Assembly: GCF_000981785.2 (NCBI RefSeq)
Contig: NZ_CP011304.1
Location: forward strand, 2,040,001-2,072,000
Origin: Microcystis aeruginosa NIES-2549
GTDB lineage: Bacteria; Cyanobacteriota; Cyanobacteriia; Cyanobacteriales; Microcystaceae
Length of the DNA stretch: 32,000 bases
Reading direction: 5' to 3'
This document shows positions 4,478-23,616 of this stretch, one piece after another (within the stretch, counting starts at the first letter, position 1; the number at the start of each line of letters is the position of its first letter). The translations under genes were made by a program, and so were the position numbers. Below the pieces are notes generated by a model, which was not told the origin of the DNA, made no database searches, and saw nothing but the letters and a program-made list of their open reading frames with translations.

Positions 4478-5833
4478 CTAAAGACTTTGTGCGATTCTAA
4501 AACCAGCGTGTTGATAAAAATTCCGGCGAAACCAATTGCGATAGTAGGGTAGGATTTCTGTGCCGTTAGTCACCCAAGCTCCTCCTAACATCATTTTATG
4601 TTGACTATTAAAGAACGGAGTGGAATTGTCAGCATAGAGGTAATGGGGTTGAAAGTCAGTTAAGGGATTAAAATCATCTTCTAGCCATTCCCAGACGTTA
4701 CCGCGTAAATCATAAATTTCTGAGTTATTACCAGAATTTTTTAACATTCCTACGGGAGTGGGAGAACAGAATTTTAAATTGAGGTTATAATCATCAAATT
4801 TATCGTTTTCTAGGGTATAACATCGATTTTTTTGACTGCCATAGGTGGCTAAATTCCACTCAGCTTCCGTCATTAAACGTATTCCTTGACCTTGAAAACG
4901 ACAGTAAGCGATCGCTTCATAATAGTTAACTTCTACCGGCCAATCAAGAGGTAAATCGAGAACATCAAACATGGCTCGATGTTGATAATTTCCCCCCTTA
5001 TCTACCAGCCAAAATTTAGGATATTTGACTCGATAATGATTTTTCCATTGCCAAGCTTCCTCATCCCAATAACTGGGATTTTCGTAGCCACCATTATGGA
5101 CAAATTCTTTAAATTCTCCGTTGGTAATCATATATTTACTCACCAGAAAATTGTTAACTTGAACTTGCCGATAACCATACTCGTTATCCCAACCATAAAT
5201 AGGAGAATCTTGGGGTTTACCAATTTCTACTATTCCCCCAGAAACCTCCACCATTTGATTAGGATAAGCTTGACCAAAAGAAGGGGCATAATGCCAACCT
5301 TGAGGACGTTGCAGACAGTCTAAAGGCAGTTGTCTGAGTAACATTGAAGATGTTTCAAAGTGAACACGCTGATGCTCGATTCCCATCATTAATGACCAGA
5401 GAGAATGCCGAGGATGAATAGGAAGATTAAGGGGTACATTTTTAATTATTTCGACCACAATTTCATAGACTTGTTGTCGATATTCCCAAACTTTAGCCAC
5501 CCCAGGCCACTGAATATGGGCGGTAGCAGAGTTTAATTCTTCAGGAGTTGCTGGATCTACTCCCACTCCAAACAATAATTCATAGTCAGGATTAGGGCTT
5601 TTTTTTAATAGGTTAACCAGCTGCAATTTATTCAGATAAAAAGCGGCCGCATGACCTAAATAAAAAATGAGGGGATTTCTTAAATCGTCAGGGTTACAGT
5701 AAAAAGCTTCTTCTTTGATGATGCTTTTTAACAGCATATCTTCTAATTGCCAAGCATTTTCAAAATAGTCCAGTATATTTTCTCGACTACAGTTACTTAG
5801 AGAGATAGGAGCCTGTGCTTGAATCTTTTCCAT
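4478..5833 (-). CDS. egtB: Ergothioneine biosynthesis sulfoxide synthase EgtB (DinB-like N-domain plus FGE-sulfatase-like C-domain)
   Basis: 451 aa. The N-terminal part carries the HxxxH-type DinB motif (FYLGHAAAFYLNK; GIEHQRVHFETS). The C-terminal FGE-like part includes GNVWEWLEDDF and GGAWVT. The gene lies immediately downstream of egtD, and there is no C-terminal methyltransferase, so it is not OvoA. Confidence 0.85.
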   Translation of the reverse strand: MEKIQAQAPISLSNCSRENILDYFENAWQLEDMLLKSIIKEEAFYCNPDDLRNPLIFYLGHAAAFYLNKLQLVNLLKKSPNPDYELLFGVGVDPATPEELNSATAHIQWPGVAKVWEYRQQVYEIVVEIIKNVPLNLPIHPRHSLWSLMMGIEHQRVHFETSSMLLRQLPLDCLQRPQGWHYAPSFGQAYPNQMVEVSGGIVEIGKPQDSPIYGWDNEYGYRQVQVNNFLVSKYMITNGEFKEFVHNGGYENPSYWDEEAWQWKNHYRVKYPKFWLVDKGGNYQHRAMFDVLDLPLDWPVEVNYYEAIAYCRFQGQGIRLMTEAEWNLATYGSQKNRCYTLENDKFDDYNLNLKFCSPTPVGMLKNSGNNSEIYDLRGNVWEWLEDDFNPLTDFQPHYLYADNSTPFFNSQHKMMLGGAWVTNGTEILPYYRNWFRRNFYQHAGFRIAQSL

Positions 5834-5873
5834 GTTTTTATGCCTCTATTACTGATGATAATTTTCTCATTAT

Positions 5874-6884
5874 TTACAGGGATAACTGACAGAGAATTAA
5901 CCCAAATAAATTTTCAGGATCGGTGAAAACCTTGAGCGGGTTTAATCCCTTTGATTTTAGGTCTTTTTGCATAGTTTCTAGGTTGAATTTACGCGAGATT
6001 TCTGTTAAAATACTTTCCGACGCTTGAAAATTAACCGTTAAATCGAGTTTTTTAAGATGAACAGGATGAGTTTTTTGACAAATTAAATACATTTCAATTT
6101 GAGATTTATCTTGATTATAGATAGCTTGATGACTAAATAAATCAAGGTTAAAATCAGCTTGAAAACGCCAATTTAAATGGGAAAGCATATTTAAATTAAA
6201 AGCGGCTGTCACCCCTTGAGCATCATTATAAGCTGCTTCTAAAATTGCCACTGGTTTTTGGAGATCAATCCCTAATAAAAAATAATCTCCAGCTTTTAGG
6301 ACAGTGGCAATTTTTTCTAAAAATTTATCACATTCAGCCGCAGAAAAATTACCGATAGAACTTCCCAAGAAAAAAATCATTCTGGTATTATCAGAAGGGT
6401 TTTGACAATAGGCTAAGGCCTGTTCATAGGTTCCAATTAACCCCTGAATGGGTAAATTAGGATATTCTTTTTGTAATTCTATGGCACTAGCTTTGAGAAT
6501 AGTTTCACTAACATCGATAGGTACATATTTAGAGGATTTTTGTTGCTGATAATAAGCATCCAATAACAGACGAGTTTTAGTGGAACTACCACTGCCTAAT
6601 TCGATCAATTCGCAGGAGCCTGTATAGGCGACAATTTCTTGAGCATATTCTTGGAGAATAGCCGCTTCTGTCCTAGTGGGATAGTATTCTGGCAATTGAC
6701 AGATTGCTTCAAAAAGTTGGGAACCTTGCCGATCATAAAAATATTTAGATGGTAAACTTTTGGGGGTTTTAGTTAATCCTTCAATCACATCTTTGCCATC
6801 ATCTTTAACTATATTTTGTCGCGTAGCATCGGTGGCTAAATACTCAATTTGTAACAGTTCTTGGTTAGATTGTTTAAGTTGCAT
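5874..6884 (-). CDS. egtD: L-histidine N-alpha-methyltransferase EgtD
   Basis: 336 aa. KYFYDRQGSQLFEAICQLPEYYPTRTEAAIL and the SAM-binding ELGSGSSTKT are signatures of the EgtD family. Confidence 0.85.
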   Translation of the reverse strand: MQLKQSNQELLQIEYLATDATRQNIVKDDGKDVIEGLTKTPKSLPSKYFYDRQGSQLFEAICQLPEYYPTRTEAAILQEYAQEIVAYTGSCELIELGSGSSTKTRLLLDAYYQQQKSSKYVPIDVSETILKASAIELQKEYPNLPIQGLIGTYEQALAYCQNPSDNTRMIFFLGSSIGNFSAAECDKFLEKIATVLKAGDYFLLGIDLQKPVAILEAAYNDAQGVTAAFNLNMLSHLNWRFQADFNLDLFSHQAIYNQDKSQIEMYLICQKTHPVHLKKLDLTVNFQASESILTEISRKFNLETMQKDLKSKGLNPLKVFTDPENLFGLILCQLSL

Positions 6885-8526: not shown

Positions 8527-10371
8527 CTAGTTTGACTGTTCCCTTGTTAAGGATACAGCTTGACTTCTTTTGGTTTGCCTTGTATTATCTAGTTTGACTT
8601 CCTTAGATGTCAAATCAGGTGATTTCAGGCTTCCATCAGATGCCGATTTATCATCGTGACAGTGGCGGTGTAGTAATTGAAGGTTTTTATATTCATTCTT
8701 TCCGCCTAAGCTGAGAGGGTGAATGTGGTCAACTTCAATTAAATCCGATGGGGTGAAATACTGTCCACATCGGCTACACTTGCCTTGTTGCTTCTTAAGT
8801 AGTTTAGCTACTCTTGTCGGTGTGTCGATTGCTTGTCCTCGTCTGGTCGCCCAGTAAGTCCAATTTCCGTCGTAAGGTGAAGCGTCGGGGCGTACTAGGG
8901 TATGTCTGACGATTGGTGTCCAATTATGTTGCCATAAATGAAGACCATCTTTGGTCTTAAATAACCAAGATTCTTGTCTTTCTTTCTCATTGCTGAGTTT
9001 AACTGTACCCGGTCTAAAGTAGTTTCTCAGCTTTTCGTAGTTCGCTTTACCGCATCTTGAGACTGTCCATGCCCTTAACATTAACCAGATTGTGTGGTCT
9101 AGTTTACTGAAGGTATCCATAGATACTGCTCCTGAGTAGTAGTTAGCCCAACCTCTAATGATTGGGTTTAATTGACTAATCAGGGCTGATTGAGGTGCTG
9201 TCTTGTGTTTTTTGATTACACCTTTAATCGCTTCTGTGTGGGCTTTAATTGCTTTTTGGCTGGGTTTAATGTGGGTTTTGTGACCAATTAATCGTCTTCC
9301 CCCTCCTATTTTCCCAGATTTGTATTTTCCTACTGGATATTGCCTGATATTGAATCCTAGAAAATCAAAACCGGGTTCTTCTGTTTTCCCATTGTACTCA
9401 ATGGGGTTAAGTGTATGACACACTCTGGTTTTTTCTGGTTTGAGTTCTAATCCAATTGGTTTTAACCATTCAGAAATGGCAATCTTGCACTGTTCAATGA
9501 TTTCGAGTGAGGGGGAAATCACTACAAAGTCATCGGCATATCTTATGAGAACAGCTTGATTAGTAGCTTTCTTTTTGGGAAATAACGTTTCAATTAGTCT
9601 CGCCATTCCATCCAGTGCGATGTTGGCTAGTAGTGGACTTATTACCCCTCCTTGTGGTGTCCCGGTTTCTGTTTCTTCAAATACGCCTTTATCCAATACT
9701 CCTGCTTTGAGCCATTGTTTTATGTCTCTTTTCAGGGAGCTTGGATAATGAATTTTGGACAGTAAACAGTTGTGATTAATTCGGTCAAAACACTTGGCAA
9801 TATCAGCATCTAATACAAAGTAGCTACCTTGATTAATGGTGATGTATATCTTTGATATTGCGTCATGGGCAGACCTTCCCGGTCGGAAACCATAACTGGT
9901 TCCTTCCATTTTTGATTCCCATTCTGGCTCAAGTGCCGATTTAATCAATGCTTGTCTAGCTCTGTCTTTGATGGTTGGTATTCCTAATGGACGTTTTTCA
10001 TCCTTACCGGGTTTAGGAATCCATACCCTTCTTAATGGTTTTGCTTTAAGTGTTCCCTTGATTTCTTCGGTTAGATTTAGCCTTTGTTCTGGGGATACTG
10101 CTATCACTCCATCGACTCCTGCTGTTTTCTTTCCTTGGTTGTCTTGGGTTACTTTGCGAACTGCTAATAGACGAGCGTAGTACGATTTCACCAATAGACG
10201 TTGCAACCTTCTAACCTTTGCATCCTGTCCCGATTTAGCCGCTTGGTATATCCTCTTTTGAAGCTTAAAAACGTATCTTTGGACTTTCGCCCAATTGATA
10301 GCTTTCCATACATTCGTAGTCTTAGTGGTTTTCGGTTTTCCGAATCCTTTACCTTCTCTCGATTTCGTCAT
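8527..10371 (-). CDS. Group II intron-encoded reverse transcriptase/maturase with C-terminal HNH endonuclease domain
   Basis: 614 aa. RT motifs are present, including RRVWIPKPGKDEKRPLGIPTIKDR, FDRINH and the catalytic IRYADDFVV. There is a maturase X region (RGWANYY), then an HNH domain (CSRCG...EVDHIHPLSLGGKNEYKNLQLLHRHCHDDK). Confidence 0.95.
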   Translation of the reverse strand: MTKSREGKGFGKPKTTKTTNVWKAINWAKVQRYVFKLQKRIYQAAKSGQDAKVRRLQRLLVKSYYARLLAVRKVTQDNQGKKTAGVDGVIAVSPEQRLNLTEEIKGTLKAKPLRRVWIPKPGKDEKRPLGIPTIKDRARQALIKSALEPEWESKMEGTSYGFRPGRSAHDAISKIYITINQGSYFVLDADIAKCFDRINHNCLLSKIHYPSSLKRDIKQWLKAGVLDKGVFEETETGTPQGGVISPLLANIALDGMARLIETLFPKKKATNQAVLIRYADDFVVISPSLEIIEQCKIAISEWLKPIGLELKPEKTRVCHTLNPIEYNGKTEEPGFDFLGFNIRQYPVGKYKSGKIGGGRRLIGHKTHIKPSQKAIKAHTEAIKGVIKKHKTAPQSALISQLNPIIRGWANYYSGAVSMDTFSKLDHTIWLMLRAWTVSRCGKANYEKLRNYFRPGTVKLSNEKERQESWLFKTKDGLHLWQHNWTPIVRHTLVRPDASPYDGNWTYWATRRGQAIDTPTRVAKLLKKQQGKCSRCGQYFTPSDLIEVDHIHPLSLGGKNEYKNLQLLHRHCHDDKSASDGSLKSPDLTSKEVKLDNTRQTKRSQAVSLTREQSN

Positions 10372-11354
10372 ATAGACTTCTACTAGACTCTATCCTTACA
10401 ATCAAACCGTAACCTGTTAGCATATCTTGACTATTACCGTCAAGCGTTGGCTTTTGGTTACATCTCACACCCTTAAAGGCTTGCGCTTACACTTGTCACT
10501 ACTGGGTATTTCGACCGATACTCAGAGCCTAAAAGGGGTTATCACGTTCCGTTTATATGGGCATTCCATCTTTAGATTTGTCCTTTCCATCGGGGTACTT
10601 TTAAAGGTCTGTGTAAGTGACTAAGCGAGTTTCTTACTTTTCCCCTTGTTCTTTTGAACGTAGTGTATCAACCTATTTCACTACTTAATCGTTACGATGG
10701 TTCAGGTCAGACATTCGGCTCACGCCTAATCTTGGATGGTTGGCAGTGGTCTCGTTTCTGGTGTTAGGTTACACCTCGGAGCCTTCCGTTCCCCGCTTCA
10801 GTCCCAGAGTTGTGACTTCTGAATCTGGGGGTGGCTATCGCCGTTACTCTCACCTTTGTAGTAATTGTAAATAATTGTTACAAAGTGTTTTGACCTTGAG
10901 TCCCCTTGCCTAGTTTGGTATCGGGTGATACTAAACGTCGGGACATATAAACAGTTATAAGGTTGGTCTGGGTTGACCTCTTAGATTCAGTCAGGGGACT
11001 GAAGACCTTATTAGGCGGTTATTTCGGGCATTTCAGCCCTATTTCATGCCTAAACGTTTCGCACCACTCTAACAATTATACAGTCACCTTCTCAAACCAT
11101 AGGATCGGTTATCCCACTCGATCGCCTTTCCTGTGCTATTGAGCCAATCCTAGCGCAATTGTTGGGGAATTTAAGATCAAGATTTCCTGACTAGGCCAAT
11201 TTTTAGCCCAGATTTCGCACTGGAGAAACGCCACAGGGATTTCTCCCCGGGATAGACAGCGAGCAGAAGCATATATCGACTTATTTAGGCCGTCTTAGCG
11301 GTCTCGATGCTCCCTTAGACAGGGTGGCGCAGATCGAATAAGTTATTCTAGGGA

Positions 11355-11660
11355 CTAGGGGAAAAAGACTGTTTTGCTGGCAATAGTCAGCATTCCTGTC
11401 ACCAAAATGCCGACAATGCTAAGGAATCCAATGGTGGTAATGTTGACTCGTGCGTTGAGATCGTCAACCCGCTTTTCTAGTCGCGTAACTTTGGCATCTA
11501 AGGCCTTAATATCCCCTTTAATTTCTCCTAAACTGTTTTTGATCGCCTTCTGTCCATTTTCTAGGTTTGTCAGTCGGGATTCGATCGCTTTCTGTCCGCT
11601 AACGATTAAATCTTCTAACCTTTTCAGATCATTCTCGGTAACTGCCGTCATCAGTGACAA
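11355..11660 (-). CDS. Tail-anchored coiled-coil protein, unknown function
   Basis: 101 aa. It has heptad-like repeats (LENGQKAIKNSLGEIKGDIKALDAKVTRLEKRVDDLNARV) followed by a single C-terminal TM helix (ITTIGFLSIVGILVTGMLTIA). Confidence 0.55.
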   Translation of the reverse strand: MSLMTAVTENDLKRLEDLIVSGQKAIESRLTNLENGQKAIKNSLGEIKGDIKALDAKVTRLEKRVDDLNARVNITTIGFLSIVGILVTGMLTIASKTVFFP

Positions 11661-11841
11661 TCCTCTTAAAGTTGAATTTTTCCCCAGTCTCCTATCAATA
11701 CTCTATCAATATTTTCTCGGTCGAGCATTTCTACTCTAGAATAAAAGATATTGCAATCCCTGTTAGGGAATTTATTAGAAACTTGAGGTATGTAAATGTG
11801 ACATAATCACAGTTTCGCATTTAACCTTCATAAGATGGAAT

Positions 11842-12177
11842 ATGAATATCATTGACGCTTTAAATCTCAAAAAAACCCAAGATTACCCTTCTAGAGAAGC
11901 TTATCAGCAAGACGTTGTCAAAGCGGTACAGGTATTGATGCGTCTAGGTATTATGGATAGTCCCTCGGCCGATTTAACCGCTTCCCTAGACTCTATCCTT
12001 GAGAAATTACAAGAGGATGAACTGGCTATCTACGGTAGAAAACGCAGTAAACAGGAAATTATCGCCGATTTAAAGCAAGTTAATAGTGAAATTGTCGAAC
12101 TCGATCGAGAAATAGCCGACTTAGAATGGCAAATTGCCCTCAAAAAAGCTGAAATATCTGTTAATGAAACATCTTAG
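11842..12177 (+). CDS. Hypothetical protein with C-terminal coiled coil
   Basis: It is a 111-aa ORF, one of only a few plus-strand genes in the window. No motif was recognised. Confidence 0.45.
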   Translation: MNIIDALNLKKTQDYPSREAYQQDVVKAVQVLMRLGIMDSPSADLTASLDSILEKLQEDELAIYGRKRSKQEIIADLKQVNSEIVELDREIADLEWQIALKKAEISVNETS

Positions 12178-12235
12178 GGTTTTTTATCTTGATTCTGGTT
12201 CGGTTTCTCCAAACTGAGCGTAATAATCATCCGCA

Positions 12236-12517
12236 CTAATAAACTTCATCGTGAGTCCCAATTGACTCCAAAAGAATTGCCTGTTTCTGCTCATATTCAA
12301 CGAATTTAAAGACAATTCTTAAATCATAGCCCACACTACAAGCATAAGAGTCTTTAAGCTCCCCTTTTAATTTGTGTGTTCTTAATCGAGGTTGAAATGG
12401 ATCTACGGATAATAAAGCTAAAGTTTCTTGGATATTTTGAGCTAAAAAAGCCTGTTTTTTCACAATTTTTCGAGCATTTCTAATAAATATATTCGAGCGT
12501 AATAAAACAAAATTCAC
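12236..12517 (-). CDS. Type II toxin, RelE/YafQ (ParE-RelE superfamily) mRNA interferase
   Basis: 93 aa. THKLKGELKDSYACSVGYDLRIVFKF ... ILLESIGTHDEVY is the characteristic RelE/YafQ C-terminal pattern. It overlaps the upstream small gene by 4 nt. Confidence 0.8.
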   Translation of the reverse strand: MNFVLLRSNIFIRNARKIVKKQAFLAQNIQETLALLSVDPFQPRLRTHKLKGELKDSYACSVGYDLRIVFKFVEYEQKQAILLESIGTHDEVY

Positions 12518-12729
12518 GAAAGGATTTCCTCCATGATTTGTTCAGGTGTCAGGGGTTGACATTGACCTTGTGCAAATTCTTGTTGAGCTTCTTGAACATC
12601 TCTAAACAACTCTGTTCTTTTTTGATCTCGAAGACGATTCTGTAAAATATGAATGAGATTTTCTTGATCTTCAAGGGGAAGTTGCTCGGCTGCTTCTAGA
12701 ATCTCTGCAAAGGTTGTTTGTATTGCCAT
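12514..12729 (-). CDS. Cognate antitoxin of the RelE/YafQ-like toxin
   Basis: It is a 71-aa acidic helical protein whose stop overlaps the toxin start (ATGA-type coupling). The assignment rests on position and size only. Confidence 0.65.
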   Translation of the reverse strand: MAIQTTFAEILEAAEQLPLEDQENLIHILQNRLRDQKRTELFRDVQEAQQEFAQGQCQPLTPEQIMEEILS

Positions 12730-13028
12730 TTTCTTAAGGGGCGATCGATTAAACTATCTAGAATTTACAATCAAGGCTAAAAATAGCGAGAGTTACCGCA
12801 TAAACATTCATTATATCGATATTTTTTGTCTAGTCAACCCAGAGAACAAAAAAACAGAAACTTGACCTATATTCACTGGGTAGAGAATGTTATCTAGAAA
12901 CATTCCCGACATTTCCGAGAATGGCCAAGGGTTGCTGATTTTTTTCTTAACCACAAAGAGACAAAGGACACAAAGAGAGGGAGTAAGGGATTTCCACCAT
13001 TCTAAGAGCGCCAAGAGAGCCGAATCAT

Positions 13029-13703
13029 CTAAGGACTAATATGAATTTGACTGAGAATATAACGCAAGCGATCATAATCATCCTTAAGTAAAACACTTAA
13101 CTGTCTGCCCACATTCACTAACCATTGTCGATCGGCTTGACGCAATTGATACATCTGACGGATAGAAGCGGCTGCCAAAGCTTCCACGGGAGTATTTTTG
13201 ACCTGTAATAAAATTCGTAAAAAGTCTAATTGTTCACTAAAATAAACCACTTCTAACGACTCACATTGATAAACCGCCTGATGAATTTGTGGGGGACGGG
13301 GAGGAATATATTGATAGATATAACCTCGCCCAGCACCATTGCCATTAAATTGTCCGGGTAAGGTTTCAAAACCGACAATAGTTGCCCGAAATTCCGTTTT
13401 TAACATAGCGAAAATCTGCGGCTGTTGTTCCCGCAATTCAGCCAAAGATAACCCCAAAGCTCTAGCGCGATGTACCGAATCGATGGGTGCAGTGGTGGCA
13501 AAGGTGACAATCCCAAAAATCTTATTACCCGTTTCTTCATCGTAGGCTTTCACCCAACTACCAAAAGCGGGCATAAAAGGAAAGTTTAACTCCTCTGGTT
13601 CCAAACATTGCGCTAAAAACTCGGTCGTCGTCGTCTCGATAACTTCGGCGATATGATCGGGATGGCGGTTATCCGTGGCCAATTGCGGTAAGGGTGGACG
13701 CAT
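13029..13703 (-). CDS. Conserved-looking hypothetical protein (224 aa), probably co-transcribed with ndhS
   Basis: It begins 2 nt after the ndhS stop on the same strand. No motif was assigned. Confidence 0.6.
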   Translation of the reverse strand: MRPPLPQLATDNRHPDHIAEVIETTTTEFLAQCLEPEELNFPFMPAFGSWVKAYDEETGNKIFGIVTFATTAPIDSVHRARALGLSLAELREQQPQIFAMLKTEFRATIVGFETLPGQFNGNGAGRGYIYQYIPPRPPQIHQAVYQCESLEVVYFSEQLDFLRILLQVKNTPVEALAAASIRQMYQLRQADRQWLVNVGRQLSVLLKDDYDRLRYILSQIHISP

Positions 13704-13705
13704 GG

Positions 13706-13900
13706 TTATTTTTTGCCTTTAGCCGGGGCAATAATTACTTCTTCTAATTCCGAGAGATTAAAGGTGACTAACTTATCCCAGTTACCCCCCTCAAAAAGAA
13801 CGGCCACTTTCCCATCGCTTAAACGCTGGGCTAAACCTTCAAATTTATAATAGGTATCATCGGGATTGGTGACTCGAACGGTACTACCTGGCAAAATCAT
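13706..13900 (-). CDS. ndhS: NDH-1 complex subunit NdhS (SH3-like ferredoxin-docking subunit)
   Basis: 64 aa. [55 protein letters not shown] closely resembles the cyanobacterial NdhS (Ssl0352-type) sequence as I recall it. Confidence 0.85.
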
Positions 13901-15106: not shown

Positions 15107-15658
15107 ATGCCTAATTATAGAAGACCTAATGTTTCTGGTGGTACTTATTTTATCACCCAAGTTACTTATCAACGTGAACCCTGGCTCTGTAGTGAAATTG
15201 GACGGAAGGCTCTCAGAGAAGCTCTTCAAAAGGTAAGAGAAAAACATCCTTTTTTAATTGATGCTTTTGTTTTGTTGCCAGATCATTTTCATTGTTTGTT
15301 AACTTTGCCACCAGAAGATAAGGATTTTTCTATGAGATTGCGATTGATTAAAACGTATGTCACCAAGCATTATGCAGAACAATTAGGTATTAATCGAGAA
15401 GTTTCTCAGTCACGAATAAAGCGCAGAGAGAGCAATCTTTGGCAGCGTCGCTATTGGGAACATTTGCTTCGAGATGAAAGAGATTTTGCTCTGCATTGTG
15501 ATTATATTCATAATAATCCCGTAAAACATGGATTATGTGCGAATCCGCAAGATTGGCAGTTTTCGAGCATCCATCGGTTTATCGCTCAGGGAATTTATCC
15601 GCCTAATTGGGGGAGCGATGGGATTAAAGAAATACCAACAGCAATTTGGGATGAATAA
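15107..15658 (+). CDS. REP-associated tyrosine transposase (RAYT; IS200-like Y1 HUH transposase)
   Basis: 183 aa with an HUH motif in LLPDHFHCLLTL and a catalytic Tyr region in CDYIHNNPVKHGL. It also carries WQRRYWEH. It is flanked on both sides by GTAG-headed REP palindromes. Confidence 0.85.
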   Translation: MPNYRRPNVSGGTYFITQVTYQREPWLCSEIGRKALREALQKVREKHPFLIDAFVLLPDHFHCLLTLPPEDKDFSMRLRLIKTYVTKHYAEQLGINREVSQSRIKRRESNLWQRRYWEHLLRDERDFALHCDYIHNNPVKHGLCANPQDWQFSSIHRFIAQGIYPPNWGSDGIKEIPTAIWDE

Positions 15659-15674
15659 TTTAATTATCAATTCT

Positions 15675-16160
15675 CGCAGGGTGCGCCATTCGATAGCGTA
15701 ACGCACCAATTTAATAATGAAGTTGATGTGTTACAGCCGATTGTTGATTTAGTTTTTTATCAGAGATTATCGCCGCAAACAAAAACATAAATCGTAGGGT
15801 GTGTTAGCGAAAGCGTAACACACCAATTTAATAATAAAGTTGGTGCGTTACGGCGGATTGTTAATTGAGGTTTTTTAACAAAAATTATCGCCGCAAACAA
15901 AAACATAAATCGTAGGGTGCGTTAGCCAAAGCGTAACGCACCAATTTAATAATAAAGTTGGTGCGTTACGGCGGATTGTTAATTTGAGTTTTTATCAGAG
16001 ATAATCACCGCAAACAAAAACATCAATCGTAGGGTGCGTTAGCGACAGCGTAACGCACCAATTTAATGACAAAGTTGGTGCGTTACGGCGGATTGTTAAT
16101 TTGAGTTTTTTATCAGAAATTATCGCCGCCTAACGCACCCTACAAGATCGGCGATCGCAC
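15675..16160. repeat. Tandem array of four ~117-119-bp units, each containing a REP palindrome plus a third REP half-site
   Basis: Units start near 15675, 15792, 15911 and 16028. The unit consensus is CGTAGGGTGCGTTAGC-n3-AGCGTAACGCACCAATTTAATAATAAAGTTGGTGCGTTACGGCGGATTGTTAATTTGAGTTTTTTATCAGAGATTATCGCCGCAAACAAAAACATAAAT. The array ends in CCTACAAGATCGGCGATCGCAC. Confidence 0.9.
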
Positions 16161-16168
16161 TACAATAT

Positions 16169-18172
16169 CTAAAACAACATACTTAAAAACTCAAGCAAAT
16201 TTAGTCCATTCAAAATTGCTCCAAGCTTTTCTAATCTTACAGGGAAATAAGGTAAATACAATGGACTAAAAGGACTTGATGGACGTAATAAAAATGGAAT
16301 TACTCTTGTCAAAGTAAATATTTTAACATACTCTATTAAAGCCACCTCCCCACTAGGATCGATCGCATTTACCGGATTAACCCCAGCGTATAAATAATCA
16401 TGCAAGGTTATCGGTTGATTATTGAAACCCTCAAAGGGATCAACGGAAGCAAAACGCCCTGTATTAGGATCATAATACCTTGCTCGTAAATAATAACCAT
16501 CTACCGCATCATCAAACTGCTCACCAGCAAACAGATAATTATTCTCCGCATCCCCGACTTTACGGGTTAAATTACCATAAGCATCATAATCATATTCTAC
16601 AATGACAGAACCATTATTACCCGTCATCAAACGAGTGCTACCTAAACCATCCACTTGATAGTAAATCCGATTTGCACCGTCCTCTTGAGAGATTAAATCC
16701 CAACCGTGAGTATAGGTAGTATTAACTGTACCATTAGTTTGATATTCCTCAATCACTTGGGCGTATTGCTGTTGATTATTGTCGATTAAGAAGCGAGTCA
16801 CCTCACCATCCACATCAATCGCCACTCGGATACCATTGTGATCATATTCAAACTCAATGCGTCCGGTTTCGCCGTTTTCCGTGACTTCTACTGCGGTTAA
16901 TTCACCCTTAGCATTCCACTCATAATTAGTGGTAGTTGCGCCATTTTCTACCTTAGCAAGGAGATTACCCTCCTCATCGTATTGATATTGGGTAACATTT
17001 CCGCCAAGAATTTCTTTTAATAATCTGTCGTTTTTATCATAGTTATAGGTGGTTTTACCTGCCACTGAATCGACTTTTTCTAAACGATTTCCTACTGCAT
17101 CAAAACTATAAGTAATCGTTTTGTTACCTGCTACAGTGTCAGTAATTTTCTCTTGGGTTAAACGATAGAGATTGTCATAGGTGTACTCCACAGTGCGACC
17201 ATCATTTTCTACCACTTTCACCCGATTACCCATCGCATCTAGGGTATAAGCATAACTAGAAATAATGCTCGTATCATTGCGGTTTTCGAGGTAGGTTAAG
17301 CGATTTAATAAGTCATATTGTTGATTTTCAATCACCCCATTGGGGAAGACTGTTTTAATCAAATTACCCACCGCATCATAATCGTAGTCTGTTACTCCAT
17401 TATCGGCATCTTTAACAGTATCAAGGCGATTCAACCCATCATAAGTATAAGTGGTTGTGCCTGAAGGTACGGTTAAGGTAAGAATATTACTAGCCTTGTC
17501 GTAAGTATAGCTAATAGTACGGTTATCGGGTTCGGTACGACTAATTAACCTGTCACGCTCATCATAAACATAATTTGTCATCCCTCGGTTATCGATAACG
17601 GTAGCTAATTCCCCCGTCAAGGTATAGGTAAAGGTTTCCGTAGCTGTACCATCAGAGAAAGATTTTTCGGTTAACCAGTTACGCTCATTATATTTATAGG
17701 TGGTGACTGCTCCATTAAAGTCAGTTACTTTGATTAAATTACCGATTTTATCGTGAATTGTCTCGTTACGTTGTCCACCAGGTAAGATGGTAGCTTTTAG
17801 ACGGGGTAAACTGTCATATTCAAACTTAGTGATATTACCATTTGCGTCTTTTTGCTCGATTAAATTACCCACTAAGTCATATTTATACTCAGTGCGTTGA
17901 TTTAAAGCATCAATTACCGCCGTTAGTCTTCCTAAAGCGTCATATTCATAATTAGTGGTATTTCCTGCTAAATCGGTTTCTGCTATCACTCGTCCTAAAG
18001 GATCATAAGTGGTAGTCATTACCGTATTATTAGCATAAGTTGTGGTAAGAAGACGATCAAGCTCGTCATAATCATACTCAGTGATGCGCCCTAACGCATC
18101 TGTTTTGGCAATTTGTCGCCCGTCTGCATCATAAGTATAGCTAGTAATTTGATTGAGGGCATTAGAAACTAC
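16169..18172 (-). CDS. RHS/YD-repeat protein. The frame is open from 18172 although the first ATG is at 18019, and it continues in frame from the upstream ORF across a single TGA. Possibly a disrupted gene.
   Basis: It has dozens of YxYDxxGNL/RL-type YD repeats. The RHS core ends RARYYDPNTGRFASVDPFEG...LYAGVNPVNAIDPSGE and is followed by a 58-aa hydrophobic tail. Codons 18020-18172 translate to VVSNALNQITSYTYDADGRQIAKTDALGRITEYDYDELDRLLTTTYANNTV, which are further YD repeats. Confidence 0.85.
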   Translation of the reverse strand, partial: VVSNALNQITSYTYDADGRQIAKTDALGRITEYDYDELDRLLTTTYANNTVMTTTYDPLGRVIAETDLAGNTTNYEYDALGRLTAVIDALNQRTEYKYDLVGNLIEQKDANGNITKFEYDSLPRLKATILPGGQRNETIHDKIGNLIKVTDFNGAVTTYKYNERNWLTEKSFSDGTATETFTYTLTGELATVIDNRGMTNYVYDERDRLISRTEPDNRTISYTYDKASNILTLTVPSGTTTYTYDGLNRLDTVKDADNGVTDYDYDAVGNLIKTVFPNGVIENQQYDLLNRLTYLENRNDTSIISSYAYTLDAMGNRVKVVENDGRTVEYTYDNLYRLTQEKITDTVAGNKTITYSFDAVGNRLEKVDSVAGKTTYNYDKNDRLLKEILGGNVTQYQYDEEGNLLAKVENGATTTNYEWNAKGELTAVEVTENGETGRIEFEYDHNGIRVAIDVDGEVTRFLIDNNQQQYAQVIEEYQTNGTVNTTYTHGWDLISQEDGANRIYYQVDGLGSTRLMTGNNGSVIVEYDYDAYGNLTRKVGDAENNYLFAGEQFDDAVDGYYLRARYYDPNTGRFASVDPFEGFNNQPITLHDYLYAGVNPVNAIDPSGEVALIEYVKIFTLTRVIPFLLRPSSPFSPLYLPYFPVRLEKLGAILNGLNLLEFLSMLF

Positions 18173-18634
18173 TCATCCTCCCCATTCAAACTCAAATTCA
18201 GGTTCAGGTAAAGATTCAACCTCTAAATCTTGAGGTTCCAATAGAGGAGTGTCATTAAACTCATATTCTGGCTCTAACATTGCTTCAGGTTCATGTGTTG
18301 TTTCAGGTTCAGGCTCAGGTTCTGGAGAAGCTTCAGGTTGATCCTCTTCTTTGCATTTTATATCAATAGTTTTTGTGTCGTTATCCCAAAATGGAGCATC
18401 CACTTCTTTTACAGAAATACTTTCAGGTTCACAACTTTTTGTATCTATAATAGTATTATTTTGATCGCCTTCGATAATATCTCCTTTTTGAGTAAAATTT
18501 TCGATGTTGGTAGTTCTTTCAGAACTATCTTGATTAATATCTCTGCCAGCAAAGTTATCTGGACTATCTTGCGTCAAACGTTCAACGAAATCCTCTGCGA
18601 AGTTTTTTAAACTCCAATTGCTTTTTTCGGACAT
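18173..18634 (-). CDS. Acidic, low-complexity N-terminal domain protein (153 aa), in frame with the downstream RHS repeats
   Basis: There is an AGGAGA RBS about 13 nt upstream of the ATG. The sequence is rich in D/E/P (EASPEPEPEPETTHEPEAMLEPEYEF...PEPEFEFEWGG). The TGA stop at 18173-18175 is in the same frame as the RHS ORF. Confidence 0.6.
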   Translation of the reverse strand: MSEKSNWSLKNFAEDFVERLTQDSPDNFAGRDINQDSSERTTNIENFTQKGDIIEGDQNNTIIDTKSCEPESISVKEVDAPFWDNDTKTIDIKCKEEDQPEASPEPEPEPETTHEPEAMLEPEYEFNDTPLLEPQDLEVESLPEPEFEFEWGG

Positions 18635-18670
18635 AGTTCATCACTCTCCTAAGTAATAATCAGTCAAGCC

Positions 18671-20323
18671 TTAAGATGATAGCGGTTTATACTCGTCTAA
18701 TCCTAGCACATAATCTACTAAATTTCTAGTCTGGGATGTGGCATCAGGGGCTAGGGCATCTTTAAGCAGAGTTTTAATATTAGCGAGTAGTTCATCCTCA
18801 AAATCTATCCAAAAAAGTTTGCGTTCTTCCTGAAGTTGAGGCGATTGTAAAAGTCCCGTAAAGCGACCACTCATTTGTAAGGATCGATTCGCTACACCTG
18901 GATTATCTTCTCCTAAAGATAATTCATAATCTTCTCTCTTTTCTAATCGTACTTTTGTAATTCCACTAGCATTAGGACTGTAACGCTGAATGGTGGGACT
19001 TATGGGTAAGTTAGGTAATCTATCACGCATTAGGTTGGTTAAAGTTGGGATTCCAGGACTTAAGGATAATAGGGTTTGGTAAACGTGCTTATTTTGTTCC
19101 CAACGTTTTTGATTGTCGGGAATAGTGGGAGCGACTTCAACTAAACCGACATTAAATTCTCGTAGATAGTCACCAGCAAGCCCCAATGTACCGACAGGAA
19201 GCCGATGAGTTTCATCAAGAATAGCTAAGATTTTTTCACGGGGTTTATCATCTTTGGGTTGGGGATTTGGCCCTAGTTCCAGAATACGAGTGAGTAGGTT
19301 GTCTAAAAATAATGGACCAACAATATTTGATGATGATTTAGAGAGTGGTTGGCTTAAAATAACGAGGGCGCGATGATAAAGAATGTCATCCAAGTCAAGC
19401 ATTTTTAAGTCTGGATGAGGTTCTGTATATTCTAATAAATCCTCATGGTTTAACATATCTTTAAAAAGTTGTACCCCCCGTCTTGTTAAAGTAAGTTGAG
19501 GCTGATTAAGATAGAAGAAATTGGCCATGTTAAGTTGTTGTTCAATATCTTCTAACAGTTGTAAATCTTTTGATTTTAAAGAGGTTTCCTGCCTTGCTGC
19601 ATTCTCTTTTAGTTTTTCTTTGACTTTATCTGGAAAATACAATAAATGAACTAATTTTCTTAATGTTGGTATTTTTTCTGATTCAAAATTTTGAAGATAT
19701 ATTAACAGATATTCTGCAATTGTGGCCGCATTATAGACAACGGCAACTGTTTCACCATCCAGTTGATAATGCTCAACGATAACCTGAGCAATCATTGCAA
19801 AAAATTCGCGTCTATCTTGGGGATTGTTGAGATACCGCAACGGGTTAAAACAGCAGTTACCACGCGGCCAACGATAACGGATAATATCAGGAAATTTCTG
19901 TTGTAAGTAATCGGCAAGATCGGTAAATGCTGCGCCTTCTTTTCCGCCATTAATACCGCCTTTAGCTTCGCAAACAATGACAGTACCATACCACTTTAAA
20001 GCCCCTGAAATTAATCTTAATAATACAGTAGTTTTGCCAGATCCAATTGCTCCACCAATAAACAAATGAGTAGAAAGTAAATCTACAGGCAACCAAAAAG
20101 GATATCTAGTTGTTGTTTCGGGATAGGATGCCGCTTGTCCTAAATAAATTTTGTTTTTTCCCGGTTTAATTTTATCGCCATCGTATGGATTATCAGCATT
20201 ATCGTCATCAGAATTAAGATTTGCTAAGACTGACTGAAGACTTTGAGGAATCCGTTTAGGCTTTCCTAGATTATTGCTTTTTTGAGCTAGGGGAATAGGT
20301 TTGAGAGAAAAAGGATAGGACAT
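18671..20323 (-). CDS. Soluble P-loop NTPase resembling type IV coupling proteins (VirD4/TraG/TraD-like NBD plus all-alpha insert), lacking the N-terminal TM anchor
   Basis: 550 aa with Walker A FIGGAIGSGKTTV, then VIVCEAKGG and CFNPLRY (a T4CP-like xNPL motif). A ~200-aa helical insert follows, then Walker B KILAILDETHRL. The family call is from motif reading only. Confidence 0.55.
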   Translation of the reverse strand: MSYPFSLKPIPLAQKSNNLGKPKRIPQSLQSVLANLNSDDDNADNPYDGDKIKPGKNKIYLGQAASYPETTTRYPFWLPVDLLSTHLFIGGAIGSGKTTVLLRLISGALKWYGTVIVCEAKGGINGGKEGAAFTDLADYLQQKFPDIIRYRWPRGNCCFNPLRYLNNPQDRREFFAMIAQVIVEHYQLDGETVAVVYNAATIAEYLLIYLQNFESEKIPTLRKLVHLLYFPDKVKEKLKENAARQETSLKSKDLQLLEDIEQQLNMANFFYLNQPQLTLTRRGVQLFKDMLNHEDLLEYTEPHPDLKMLDLDDILYHRALVILSQPLSKSSSNIVGPLFLDNLLTRILELGPNPQPKDDKPREKILAILDETHRLPVGTLGLAGDYLREFNVGLVEVAPTIPDNQKRWEQNKHVYQTLLSLSPGIPTLTNLMRDRLPNLPISPTIQRYSPNASGITKVRLEKREDYELSLGEDNPGVANRSLQMSGRFTGLLQSPQLQEERKLFWIDFEDELLANIKTLLKDALAPDATSQTRNLVDYVLGLDEYKPLSS

Positions 20324-20332
20324 AATTTATTC

Positions 20333-21091
20333 TTATTGAAAGGGATGGTCATTTATGTCTTCACTATGATCAGCCTCTATTGGACGATGTAAGGAGCTTC
20401 CAAGTAAAGGATTATCAGGGTCTAATCGCTGCATTACTGAATCCATAATTTCCAATAATTCCTTCCCTTGTTTTCCAAAAGAAGCTCTGTTTGTTTGCAT
20501 GGCCAATAAAATATTATACGCCTGAGCAACTACATCTAAAAGCGTTTGTTGAGTTTTTTCTTTCAATTCAAATTTTTGCTTGAGAATCCTTAGTTCCTCA
20601 CTCAATTTATAAATTCTTATATCTTTTCTTTGTTTAATATAATCATAAAATGTTGGTGTCAAACGTATAGAATTTTGATAATGTCGTCCATAGATAAACA
20701 AAAGTCCAAGAGTCAAAAATATTCCTATCATTGTTGTTGACGAATTAAAACTCCTAACAAAAAAGTCATCCCATTCATCAAACTTTAAGAAAATTACTAC
20801 TGTCAACAAGTCTAATACTGGTTTAAATAAACAAAAGACTATGCCAACCTGAATCAGGGAAAATACAATCAGATACCATGTTGAGATTTTAATCCCTTCT
20901 TTGTATTTACCCAATAAATCTTCGTTGTTACTTTTTAATATGTGTATTCGCACAGCGTTAATTGTTGCTTGTGGCCATATAAGCGCGTGCAAAAATTTAT
21001 CATTTTTGGGTTGCTCCGCTAAGTGAACAATTTCATCTACGAGATGAGCAAACTTATCATCTTCAGGGTTAATGGATTCAATGGTTGTCAT
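20333..21091 (-). CDS. Membrane protein with about 3 TM helices and a C-terminal coiled coil, unknown function
   Basis: 252 aa. The TM segments are TWYLIVFSLIQVGIVFCLF, VLDLLTVVIFL and TTMIGIFLTLGLLFIYG. The C-terminus is helical (ELRILKQKFELKEKTQQTLLDVVAQAYNILLAMQ). There is an AAGGAG RBS, and the stop is 9 nt from the ATPase start. Confidence 0.65.
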   Translation of the reverse strand: MTTIESINPEDDKFAHLVDEIVHLAEQPKNDKFLHALIWPQATINAVRIHILKSNNEDLLGKYKEGIKISTWYLIVFSLIQVGIVFCLFKPVLDLLTVVIFLKFDEWDDFFVRSFNSSTTMIGIFLTLGLLFIYGRHYQNSIRLTPTFYDYIKQRKDIRIYKLSEELRILKQKFELKEKTQQTLLDVVAQAYNILLAMQTNRASFGKQGKELLEIMDSVMQRLDPDNPLLGSSLHRPIEADHSEDINDHPFQ

Positions 21092-21131
21092 GTTAAAAAC
21101 TCCTTAAACAAGTTAGAAATAAATTAAAAAA

Positions 21132-22778
21132 TCAAGGCTCAATAAGTTTTCGAGATTCTTGTTGACGGTATTGAGATTTAAGATAGTTTAATCTTAAGGG
21201 TGGATAAATTGACAATCCTGTTAATGAAACCGTAGATAAAACACTTGCTGTAAGAAGGTAGGTGTTAAAGCCATTAACAAAACCTAAGCCTGTGGAAATG
21301 CTTACACAAGAAGTCAATAAAATATATGAAGTTGCTCTCACTCTGTTTTTCAATGGTTTTTCATAAAATAATTGACAAAATAAATGCCATAAATCGTTGT
21401 AATATCTCATCCAAAGACGTAGAATGATTACAAGAATTACGCCTAAACTCCCTCCTAACAAACCGCCTATCATAAGTCCACTAAAAATTTGAACGAACGA
21501 ATTCTGATCGTGAGCAAGACTCCAACCATAGACATTAAACATTCCTACTGATGAAAAAGCTAAAAATACACCTAAACCTAACAACGCTAGATAGGGAGGA
21601 AAAGCAACATCAAATTTAATTTTTGCCGTTTGAATAGAAACATTAAAACGGATGCGCTCCTCGTTAGCATTACTTTCTAAAACAATTTCTCGCTGATAAA
21701 TCTTATCTGCTTTGAGTTTACTTGTATCAATCGTAATCGTGCAAGTTACCTCTTCCTCATAGTGCGCTTCAAACCGTTTGGGAGTAATGCGAATCCAGAC
21801 ATGATCATCTGGTGTATGGGGCGGATCATTCGGATGAGGCGCAACATACCATTGCCCTTGTAAAATCGTCTCAGAAACCGTATTTTTTAGCGTAATTGTT
21901 TGGCTTAACTTTTCCCCTACTTTGCCAGCAACAAACCTCAATTCTGACTTATCAAAAGTAATATCAGGAATCCGAACAATATAAAGCGGTTGTAAAGCCT
22001 CTAACGCCGTTTTTGCATCAGGAAAGCGATTCACTGGCTCAGGTTCAACCATTTTTTCCAGCCATTGAATAAACTTAAAACTAAACTTGGGAACCCGAAC
22101 TTTAAAAATAATACGATTTGTGGAAAAATTGACTAATTTTCCAATATCGGATGTCTTATTTTTGGTAATTAAACAGATTAAGGTTGCCCCTAAACCATAC
22201 AAATCAGACGCTTCTGTTAACTTTTGATTATGAACTTGTTCTGGTGGCATAAATCCCAAAGTACCGCCCATCATGGTACTAAATGCCATTGTATTATTAC
22301 CAATTCGTGCCAAACCAAAATCAATTAAATAAACCTTAATATTATCATCTACTAAAATATTTTCAGGCTTTAAATCTTTATGTATAATGATAGGAATCTG
22401 ATTTTGTAAATAGATCAAGATTTCTAAAATTTGATTAGCAATATCCTTAATTTCTTCTGGGCTAAACGTGCGAGGTTTTGATAAAGGAGCGGCATTCTTA
22501 TATTCCTGTACAAAACATAACCCATCCCCCGGATCAAATTTAGTCAGAAATTTTGGTATTCCTGGATGCTTTAACCCCCGCAGTACCTCAATTTCTCGCT
22601 CAATCGCCTTGTACTCATCCCAGTTGTTAGTTTTTGCAAAACAAAACTGCTTAATCACCACCGCTTGCTGTGAGTTAAGATCAAGAGCCTTATAGGTAAT
22701 CCTGCCGCCTGTGGCATTGTTGTTCAGGCATTCTGTCACTTCATAACCAAATTGACGAAAATCGGGGAAAGTAGTCAT
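21132..22778 (-). CDS. Hanks-type Ser/Thr protein kinase fused to a beta-rich middle domain and a 4-TM C-terminal domain
   Basis: 548 aa with VVIKQF (catalytic Lys), EREIEVL (helix C Glu), HKDLKPENIL, DFGLAR and MPPE. Residues ~270-390 look like an Ig-like beta sandwich. Four hydrophobic helices follow (YLALLGLGVFLAFSSVGMF, IFSGLMIGGLLGGSLGVILVIIL, YILLTSCVSISTGLGFV, LLTASVLSTVSLTGLSI). Confidence 0.85.
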   Translation of the reverse strand: MTTFPDFRQFGYEVTECLNNNATGGRITYKALDLNSQQAVVIKQFCFAKTNNWDEYKAIEREIEVLRGLKHPGIPKFLTKFDPGDGLCFVQEYKNAAPLSKPRTFSPEEIKDIANQILEILIYLQNQIPIIIHKDLKPENILVDDNIKVYLIDFGLARIGNNTMAFSTMMGGTLGFMPPEQVHNQKLTEASDLYGLGATLICLITKNKTSDIGKLVNFSTNRIIFKVRVPKFSFKFIQWLEKMVEPEPVNRFPDAKTALEALQPLYIVRIPDITFDKSELRFVAGKVGEKLSQTITLKNTVSETILQGQWYVAPHPNDPPHTPDDHVWIRITPKRFEAHYEEEVTCTITIDTSKLKADKIYQREIVLESNANEERIRFNVSIQTAKIKFDVAFPPYLALLGLGVFLAFSSVGMFNVYGWSLAHDQNSFVQIFSGLMIGGLLGGSLGVILVIILRLWMRYYNDLWHLFCQLFYEKPLKNRVRATSYILLTSCVSISTGLGFVNGFNTYLLTASVLSTVSLTGLSIYPPLRLNYLKSQYRQQESRKLIEP

Positions 22779-23118
22779 GGATAGACCTCTCAGCGAAATA
22801 AGTCAGGACATTTGCCCAGAGTCATTTCTGGCCAAAATGCCTTGTTTGAACGATGCTATCAAAAATTAGTGAAGTTTTCTACCTCTGGACATTTTTATTT
22901 TGAAAATATTGATCTCCCCCACCCGTCAAATTTTCCAGTTAAGCTGCCAGATTTGCTAGGAGAAGATAGGGTGAGAGGCGTGACTTGAGGAAGCACCTCT
23001 ACCAGATCGGCGATCGCAATGAAAAAAGCTCCCCACTTCCCCAACAGTGAATAATAGGTTCCCATCTCAGGGATCTGTGTTACCATGCGGGGTAAATTCA
23101 AGCGATCTCCAGACACCT

Positions 23119-23616
23119 ATGAGCAAGGTTCTCGTGTTGAATGCCTCCTACGAACCGCTAAATATCACCAGTTGGCGGCGCGCGATCGTTTTATTGTTGA
23201 AAGGAAAAGCTGAATCCCTAGAACATAACGGAAAAGTGGTTTGTCGTGACTTACCCCTACCCTCCGTTATCCGTCTTAGGCAATACGTCCGTGTTCCCTA
23301 CAAGGAAATTCCTTTAACCCGTCGTAATATTCTCGAACGAGACCATCACACCTGTCAATACTGTCTCTACCGAGGTGAACAATTAACCATCGATCATGTG
23401 ATTCCCCGTTCCCGCGGAGGGGGTGATACCTGGGAAAATTTAGTGGCGGCTTGTGTGCGTTGTAATGTGCATAAGGGCAATCGTACACCAAAAGAGGCCA
23501 ATCTGTCCCTGCGCGCCCAGCCGCGTCGTCCCTACAGTAGTCTCCACTTTGAGCTATTAAAGCACACCAGGGGCAATCACAATCACGAATGGCGTAAATA
23601 TGTCATCGGCATTTAG
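23119..23616 (+). CDS. HNH endonuclease (McrA-like small HNH protein)
   Basis: It carries DHHTCQYC...LTIDHVIPRSRGGGDTWENLVAACVRCNVHKGNRTP. I prefer the start at MSKVLVLNASYEPLN (23119) over the ORF-track start at 23047. Confidence 0.8.
   Translation: MSKVLVLNASYEPLNITSWRRAIVLLLKGKAESLEHNGKVVCRDLPLPSVIRLRQYVRVPYKEIPLTRRNILERDHHTCQYCLYRGEQLTIDHVIPRSRGGGDTWENLVAACVRCNVHKGNRTPKEANLSLRAQPRRPYSSLHFELLKHTRGNHNHEWRKYVIGI

Follow-up and report, generated by a model that had tools for sequence, protein, structure and literature searches.

Five co-directional open reading frames (ORFs) on the minus strand of Microcystis aeruginosa NIES-2549 encode, in this order, a kinase, a membrane protein, an ATPase, an acidic protein and an RHS ORF, and on balance this block probably consists of three independently evolving units, namely a widespread membrane kinase, a three-gene cassette and an RHS fragment. 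The block lies within a window, by which we mean the full 32,000-nt stretch of contig NZ_CP011304.1 from 2,040,001 to 2,072,000, and coordinates below are window positions unless another locus is named. As judged by comparison of loci, the conserved entity is a cyanobacterial cassette composed of a membrane anchor, an ATPase with the fold of a coupling protein and a very acidic, mostly low-complexity protein. The initial annotation had proposed one kinase-gated delivery system in which kinase, membrane protein, coupling-protein-like ATPase and an acidic-RHS toxin would belong together; when co-occurrence was checked in 36 other ATPase-bearing loci plus the window (37 loci, searched with iterated profiles and designated by L numbers), no conserved four-gene linkage emerged, as the kinase was found in 3/37 and RHS sequences in 2/37 loci, in one lineage only, pointing to a lineage-specific juxtaposition.

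The ORFs, the domain assignments and the gaps given in that annotation hold: 40 nt separate the kinase and anchor genes, 9 nt the anchor and ATPase genes and 36 nt the ATPase and acidic-protein genes. A terminator scan across the block found no terminator-like site on the coding strand, and promoter-like matches in the block were no commoner than in shuffled sequence; because of these two results, co-transcription of the block genes is plausible and is put no higher than that.

Anchor, ATPase and acidic protein of the cassette

The second gene of the core cassette (20323..18671, minus strand) encodes a soluble P-loop ATPase of 550 aa with a type IV coupling protein (T4CP)-like fold, in which Walker A lies at residue 90, CEAKGG at 118, FNPL at 159 and Walker B at 365. 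An AlphaFold2 (AF2) model based on a 33-sequence alignment (predicted local distance difference test, pLDDT, 89.6; predicted template modelling score, pTM, 0.88) has a helical insert at approximately 168-298; as in TrwB, it separates the strand of Walker A from that of Walker B. The best Foldseek matches of this model in the PDB were Cagbeta (6e-11), TrwB (1e-9) and DotL (2e-9), followed at lower rank by DndH-C (5e-8), HerA (1e-7) and VirB4 (2e-5), and the target-normalised TM-scores against coupling proteins were 0.50-0.61. The earlier proposal of a T4CP-like nucleotide-binding domain (NBD) plus all-alpha domain was thus borne out, coupling proteins outranking HerA when T4CP and HerA/FtsK assignments were compared by structure, and the reported lack of an N-terminal transmembrane anchor was recovered as well, since the sequence contains no hydrophobic or transmembrane segment. 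The model supports the view that the ATPase is coupling-protein-like at the level of its fold and has no anchor of its own.

Profile searches of the ATPase against Pfam, NCBIfam, PADLOC, PHROGs and the PDB returned sub-threshold or generic matches only. It lies below every Pfam and NCBIfam cutoff: the Pfam model TrwB_AAD_bind scored 16.4 bits against a cutoff of 20.5, with the match confined to the surroundings of Walker A, VirB4 (E 1.7e-3) and the NCBIfam models TraD and TrbC (E>0.04) were sub-threshold, and Pfam gave no DUF87 match on the window ATPase. PADLOC yielded only generic matches (mad8, E 2e-6; HerA, E 0.02) and the PDB profile search DotL at E 0.31. Residues G96/K97 of Walker A and D370/E371 of Walker B are invariant in the 33 ATPase sequences, and the ratio of non-synonymous to synonymous substitution rates (dN/dS) is 0.16-0.24; the ATPase is under purifying selection.

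The first gene of the core cassette (21091..20333, minus strand) encodes a membrane protein of 252 aa with a cytoplasmic N-terminal region, two to three transmembrane segments (hydrophobic stretches at 69-104 and 117-136), a coiled coil and an acidic C-terminal end, and it matches no family in Pfam, NCBIfam, PADLOC or PHROG. A homologue stands directly upstream of the ATPase gene in every one of the 37 loci with sufficient upstream sequence, and in two 914-aa proteins (P0060 and P0081) anchor and ATPase are fused, the N-terminal 350 aa of both proteins matching separately encoded anchors (E 2e-58). Because of this natural fusion, the idea of the initial annotation that the adjacent membrane protein could supply the anchor that the ATPase lacks is now supported by homology, together with the universal linkage wherever sequence exists.

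The anchor is also a fast-evolving protein, split from the ATPase. The anchors of the window and of locus L036 are only 27% identical, although the two ATPases are 97% identical, and the divergence is confined to a mosaic segment, or allele swap, that comprises window positions 20370-21511 (the anchor gene and the transmembrane C-terminus of the kinase) and L036 positions 9268-10806, on either side of which the two loci are ~97% identical. With the anchor of a Snowella locus (L001), the L036 allele shares 89% identity, and the L036 kinase carries ~100 extra residues in its transmembrane region relative to the window kinase.

The third gene (18634..18173, minus strand) encodes a free-standing acidic protein of 153 aa (28% D+E, pI 4.05) in which a conserved motif at the N-terminus and TxxGDI repeats are followed by the C-terminal tail PEPEFEFEWGG. 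Acidic homologues or analogous acidic ORFs (120-370 aa, 20-28% D+E) occur in most loci, and their tails are aromatic-acidic, for example EFEFEWGG, EFDFEIGG, FEFEFEC, SEMKWG and EADYG. In the alignment of acidic homologues (A3), a variable number of N-[IV]-x-N-x-T-x-x-G-D-I repeats stands between an N-terminal motif EDFV...QDSPDNFAGRDINQ and a PEPEFEFEWGG-type tail. The gene is under purifying selection. When the ATPase domains were compared with the acidic protein for electrostatic complementarity, no clear signal emerged.

The initial annotation had let this acidic N-domain continue into RHS repeats. The acidic ORF ends in ...EFEFEWGG-TGA, an in-frame stop that has the same position in L020, L001 and L036, and all acidic homologues are free-standing, none being fused to another domain. 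Because the homology of L020 and L001 to the window ends exactly at this codon, with ordinary intergenic DNA and no RHS beyond it, the TGA is by homology the native stop of a stand-alone conserved acidic protein, and the supposed single acidic-domain/RHS toxin resolves into two separate things, this protein and a 5'-truncated RHS fragment.

To delimit the ATPase family, we combined a word-indexed search, which gave 79 matches, with an exhaustive profile scan of 1.84 billion representatives, which gave 54 matches at E<=1e-3 and 21 at E<=1e-30. The strong matches were full-length family members or fragments thereof, and the weak ones tested against Pfam were other TraG/TrwB/HerA-type ATPases. 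By these searches the family appears tiny and restricted to cyanobacteria, and a scan of viral contigs found no relatives. One 3.8-kb contig carrying the cassette (L004, JBJSYX010000293.1) is labelled as a Methylomonas metagenome-assembled genome; its ATPase is 62% identical to the window protein, the same value as for the Microcystis copies L002 and L003, and it is probably a mis-binned cyanobacterial contig and not a proteobacterial occurrence.

The cassette exists in two forms. The short form, to which the window belongs, consists of anchor, ATPase and acidic protein, and the long form, exemplified by L019 (6159-11662) and found also in L008, L009, L010, L012, L028, L031, L033 and L039, encodes a ~250-aa protein whose N-terminus resembles that of a lipoprotein, a polytopic membrane protein (355-494 aa), an acidic protein, a ~390-aa anchor and the ATPase. 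The accessory proteins of the cassette belong to no Pfam or PHROG family. In L008, and in this locus only, the gene directly downstream of the ATPase (11518-13002) codes for a protein of 494 aa that has a cell-wall hydrolase domain (Peptidase_M15_4/VanY).

Consistent with the initial annotation, which had noted no type IV secretion system (T4SS) gene near the ATPase, no relaxase, VirB4 or other T4SS gene was present in the 10 Pfam-annotated loci, and T4SS genes were absent among the top 25 families listed for 109 neighbours in 14 further loci, a census in which single weak matches are possible. That census returned ParA, Cas1, RAMP, PIN and Uma2 families and no recurrent partner, and elsewhere the cassette lies, in different loci, beside integrase, restriction endonuclease and TIR genes, beside PIN, helicase and insertion sequence (IS) genes, beside type III CRISPR genes, beside HigB and NACHT genes, or beside NACHT and caspase genes. 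The contexts of the cassette are variable and island-like.

Kinase and RHS sequences beside the cassette

The kinase gene (22778..21132, minus strand) encodes a Hanks-type Ser/Thr kinase of 548 aa (Pkinase, PF00069, E 1.2e-35, 123.6 bits against a cutoff of 31.7) in which VIKQ41 (catalytic K43), HKDLKPEN133 (HKD133-135) and DFG153 are all present. The AF2 model (43 homologues, pLDDT 82) divides it into a kinase domain (1-265), an all-beta region (270-385), taken as a cytoplasmic beta-sandwich, and long helices (396-544) that form a helical transmembrane domain, and the sequence has four hydrophobic segments; the architecture first described, a kinase with its catalytic residues, a beta domain and four transmembrane helices, is thus confirmed.

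Its family comprises >2500 proteins, compared with ~80 ATPases. In the 36 other loci, kinase or RHS sequences were detected by iterated profiles only in L020 and L036, and RHS only in L036; beside the cassette, the kinase is therefore confined to the window, to L020 (97.7% nt identical to the window) and to L036 (~97% nt identical, syntenic from hypC to RHS and labelled Microcystis aeruginosa NIES-2519), all of one lineage with at least 96% identity. Among ~23 other loci with at least 2.5 kb of upstream sequence, no kinase was found.

Two further loci, L034 and L035, retain the same kinase intact (96% nt), followed only by a 56-codon anchor stub and a REP (repetitive extragenic palindromic) element. 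The stub ORF (L034 10841-11011; L035 2216-2386; 56 aa) is the N-terminal part of an L036-type anchor cut by the REP-like element, and therefore the cassette has been deleted there. The converse is seen in the Snowella locus L001, where the kinase gene is reduced to its last 36 nt beside an intact cassette (87.8% nt identity to the window and 90% to L036). This reciprocal loss in close relatives implies that neither the kinase nor the cassette needs the other, and by comparative evidence the kinase is a lineage-specific neighbour and not a component of the cassette. REP units that resemble the array of the window (see below) follow the anchor stub in L034 and are present in L036 as well.

Downstream of the acidic TGA the same frame runs, without a start codon, into YD repeats (VVSNALNQITSYTYDADGRQ...), with 51 codons to the first ATG: the RHS reading frame opens in the middle of a repeat, and start-less codons (18172..18020, minus strand) precede a 616-aa ORF that begins with the ATG at 18019 (18019..16169). 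The ORF has 11 RHS_repeat stretches (E 2.2e-61) and an Rhs_assc_core match at 478-557 (E 8.8e-20), and the 53 aa beyond DPSGE have neither a domain match nor a recurrence among 120 homologues. No immunity gene follows the window RHS; the REP array stands there instead. The other RHS-bearing locus, L036, has an identical junction (GG-TGA-VVSNALNQ) and keeps a hydrophobic linker, a Cytotoxic (PF09000) tip and a DUF7683 gene, and the similarity between the two RHS sequences stops right after the RHS core. When we searched the RHS family for an N-terminal domain in order to place the truncation point, most database homologues were likewise found to begin inside the repeats.

As a whole, the RHS sequence is, to judge by these alignments, a 5'-truncated, displaced fragment, which in the window is without toxin tip and immunity gene. 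Like orphan or displaced Rhs C-terminal fragments, it starts within YD repeats without an N-terminal domain, retains the core (DPxG...) and parts from its nearest relative precisely where that core ends; unlike them, it has no full-length rhs gene upstream, abuts the stop codon of an unrelated gene in frame and has no remaining toxin/immunity pair. With RHS polymorphic toxins it shares the repeats and the core, but an N-terminal trafficking domain or start, a toxin domain and an immunity gene are all lacking.

Likeness to known systems and competing explanations

Our literature searches for orphan systems of the T4CP-like kind, be it in cyanobacteria or in defence, turned up nothing relevant. 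Type IV coupling proteins (VirD4/TrwB/TraD/Cagbeta/DotL) are the best structural match, sharing a RecA-like NBD, Walker A/B and an inserted all-alpha domain, and the likeness extends to a membrane tether, to acidic tails and to small partners with an accessory or regulatory role. CagZ, TraM and IcmSW are such small partners of coupling proteins. The differences are that coupling proteins carry their anchor in the same polypeptide, whereas that of the cassette is a separate gene product fused in only a few members; that the cassette ATPase does not reach the cutoffs of the Pfam families T4SS-DNA_transf, TraG-D_C and TrwB_AAD_bind or those of NCBIfam; that the association with a relaxase and a T4SS is missing in the loci examined; and that the family is very small and occurs in cyanobacteria only. 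The cassette thus resembles coupling proteins most, but because sequence thresholds, an anchor in cis and T4SS/relaxase linkage are wanting, it falls outside their ranks.

Other systems are further removed. HerA/FtsK-type defence ATPases and the C-terminal domains of DndH/SspH belong to the same ATPase superfamily and share the island-like contexts, but the cassette ATPase has no HAS-barrel and no DUF87 match above threshold, and no NurA, nuclease, SIR2 or DUF4297 partner and no DNA-modification genes accompany the cassette. The likeness to the type VII secretion system (T7SS; EssC/EccC) is conceptual, consisting of an anchored FtsK-like ATPase, a small acidic partner with a C-terminal motif and polymorphic toxins that are sometimes encoded downstream (PMC3482391); EssC/EccC is absent from the 50 Foldseek matches listed, the cassette ATPase has one ATPase domain and not three, there is no FHA, WXG or LXG match, and the RHS linkage of the cassette is lineage-specific.

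The best PADLOC matches of the block were mad6 for the kinase (E 2.5e-37) and, as mentioned, mad8 for the ATPase (E 2e-6), both from the methylation-associated defence system (MADS), in which mad6, mad7 and mad8 are mandatory and a methyltransferase stands alongside (10.1101/2023.03.30.534895). The PADLOC profiles for MADS were built from HHpred matches to PDB structures and are hence generic. We rejected a MADS identity, as the profiles are generic, the NCBIfam MAD6 model scored 81 bits against a cutoff of 460 and the block contains no methyltransferase, mad7 or other mad gene.

If the block indeed consists of three separate units, the anchor would tether a ring-forming ATPase to the cytoplasmic membrane, much as the N-terminal transmembrane domain does in true coupling proteins, and the acidic protein would dock on the ATPase by its terminal tail as a client, an adaptor or a regulator, in analogy to T4CP substrates, TraM/TraD tails or CagZ. 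ATP hydrolysis could then drive the handover or translocation of the acidic client, or of nucleic acid, at the membrane, and the cassette would serve an accessory-island function of the mobile or conflict type. The RHS sequence would have landed exactly at the stop of the acidic gene, its toxin tip and immunity gene being lost in the window, and would represent passenger debris.

Several observations weigh against this account. No cassette homologue has a known function, no channel component was found in the short form of the window, and the acidic protein may equally be a substrate, an adaptor or a regulator. The RHS frame has a dN/dS of 0.13 relative to L036, with 34/43 differences at third codon positions, and is not simply decaying; because the frame is still under constraint, the fragment may be expressed from the internal ATG or homogenised by conversion with paralogues. 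Moreover, the adjacency of kinase and anchor is ancestral for the Microcystis/Snowella-type cassette lineage, and the divergent mosaic segment spans both the transmembrane domain of the kinase and the anchor; because of these two features, there may be a local functional link between kinase and anchor.

The competing explanations start from the same data. An anti-phage or anti-plasmid defence role, with a tethered translocase that would sense or pump incoming DNA and an acidic protein that would act as a DNA-mimic plug or regulator and silence the ATPase until infection, is in our judgement unlikely. It would accommodate the patchy distribution, the islands beside CRISPR, TIR, PIN, NACHT, toxin-antitoxin, integrase and IS genes, the swap of the anchor allele between 97%-identical backgrounds, the lack of any copy in the viral contigs scanned and the fact that T4CP/HerA-like ATPases serve in defence (DndH-C and HerA being among the Foldseek matches); yet the cassette has no conserved effector domain (nuclease, protease, TIR etc.), the PADLOC matches are generic only (mad8 2e-6, HerA 0.02) and several contexts are housekeeping. 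The lack of a relaxase, VirB4 or other T4SS gene in the 10 Pfam-annotated loci, and of any among the families listed for the 14 further loci, speaks against a coupling module that would be the relic or the satellite of some conjugative or mobilisable element and would use a T4SS encoded elsewhere, with the acidic protein as a relaxosome-type accessory factor. Such a module also sits poorly with an ATPase that is sub-threshold for every T4CP model and with a cassette conserved as a self-contained unit, and we regard it as improbable even though the fold is nearest to conjugative coupling proteins, ParA- and actin-like partition genes lie near the cassette in L005, L008 has an M15 cell-wall peptidase gene after that of the ATPase and integrases are found nearby in L013 and L039.

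A kinase-gated toxin-delivery system, comprising kinase, anchor, ATPase and acidic-RHS protein with RHS as the cargo of the ATPase, draws on the tight co-directional spacing without a terminator-like site on the same strand, on the same five-gene order in L036 with an intact Cytotoxic tip and immunity gene, and on an RHS frame that directly follows the acidic TGA in frame and is under coding constraint. Precedents exist in other systems, since Thr-kinase gating is established for the type VI secretion system. Another precedent is the T7SS, whose FtsK/HerA-type ATPases secrete RHS-bearing toxins as well as WXG proteins, which are small and acidic (Zhang et al. 2012, PMC3482391). Against these stand the absence of kinase and RHS from all 34 other loci, the lack of RHS after the acidic stop in L020 despite its 97.7% nt identity, the reciprocal loss of kinase and cassette, acidic homologues that are all free-standing with a stop kept in both RHS-bearing loci, and an RHS sequence that starts mid-repeat and is toxin-less in the window, so that we hold a unified system of this kind to be very improbable. 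There is likewise little likelihood that the cassette is a self-contained minimal membrane translocation machine, that is, a coupling-protein motor without a T4SS, completed in the long form by the lipoprotein and the polytopic protein, for which the acidic protein would be a client or targeting module recognised through its aromatic-acidic tail; here the RHS sequence would have been captured in frame in the Microcystis/Snowella-type lineage, and low-level readthrough of the TGA would yield an exportable acidic-RHS fusion, possibly modulated by the kinase.

The established place of coupling proteins is within machines for type IV secretion and conjugation. A conserved ATPase of this fold that is under purifying selection and comes with a split, fast-evolving anchor and an acidic partner, but without T4SS, relaxase or known effector, suggests one of two new things: a use of the motor in defence or in the biology of mobile elements, or a minimal route of export, in cyanobacteria such as Microcystis. 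No family assignment exists for 4/5 of the cassette components when the long form is included, and the kinase and RHS sequences, conspicuous as they are beside the cassette, are not to be counted among the parts of the system.

Setting of the block and further genes of the window

The REP/RAYT island and the HNH gene that had been described as bracketing the block were both recovered. A REP-like array at 15690-16130 (strand not assigned), made of ~118-nt units that each contain a 38-39 nt palindrome, abuts the 3' end of the RHS ORF, and next to it lies a gene for a RAYT/IS200-like Y1 transposase (15107..15658, plus strand; PF01797, Y1_Tnp, E 2.3e-8). On the other side of the block, an HNH endonuclease gene (23047..23616, plus strand; PF01844, E 8.4e-17) is, along with hypC and hypD, syntenic in L036. 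The block was also said to be more AT-rich than its flanks, and it is modestly so: its GC content is 36.8%, and that of the anchor gene 32.8%, compared with 40.8% and 41.7% for the two flanks.

Elsewhere in the window, a 224-aa HAS-barrel protein (PF09378, E 4.9e-9) is encoded at 13029-13703 (minus strand) without an attached ATPase, beside a 64-aa ORF (13706-13900, minus strand) that resembles the NDH-1 subunit NdhS by eye only; both look like core genes unrelated to the cassette. The window further contains a TnpB (OrfB_IS605/Cas12f-like) gene at 369-1577 and a 614-aa group II intron-type reverse transcriptase/maturase/HNH ORF at 8527-10371 (both minus strand). At 4478-6884 (minus strand), adjacent genes encode a Methyltransf_33 histidine-specific methyltransferase and an FGE-sulfatase-domain protein, which together look like an ergothioneine EgtD/EgtB pair.

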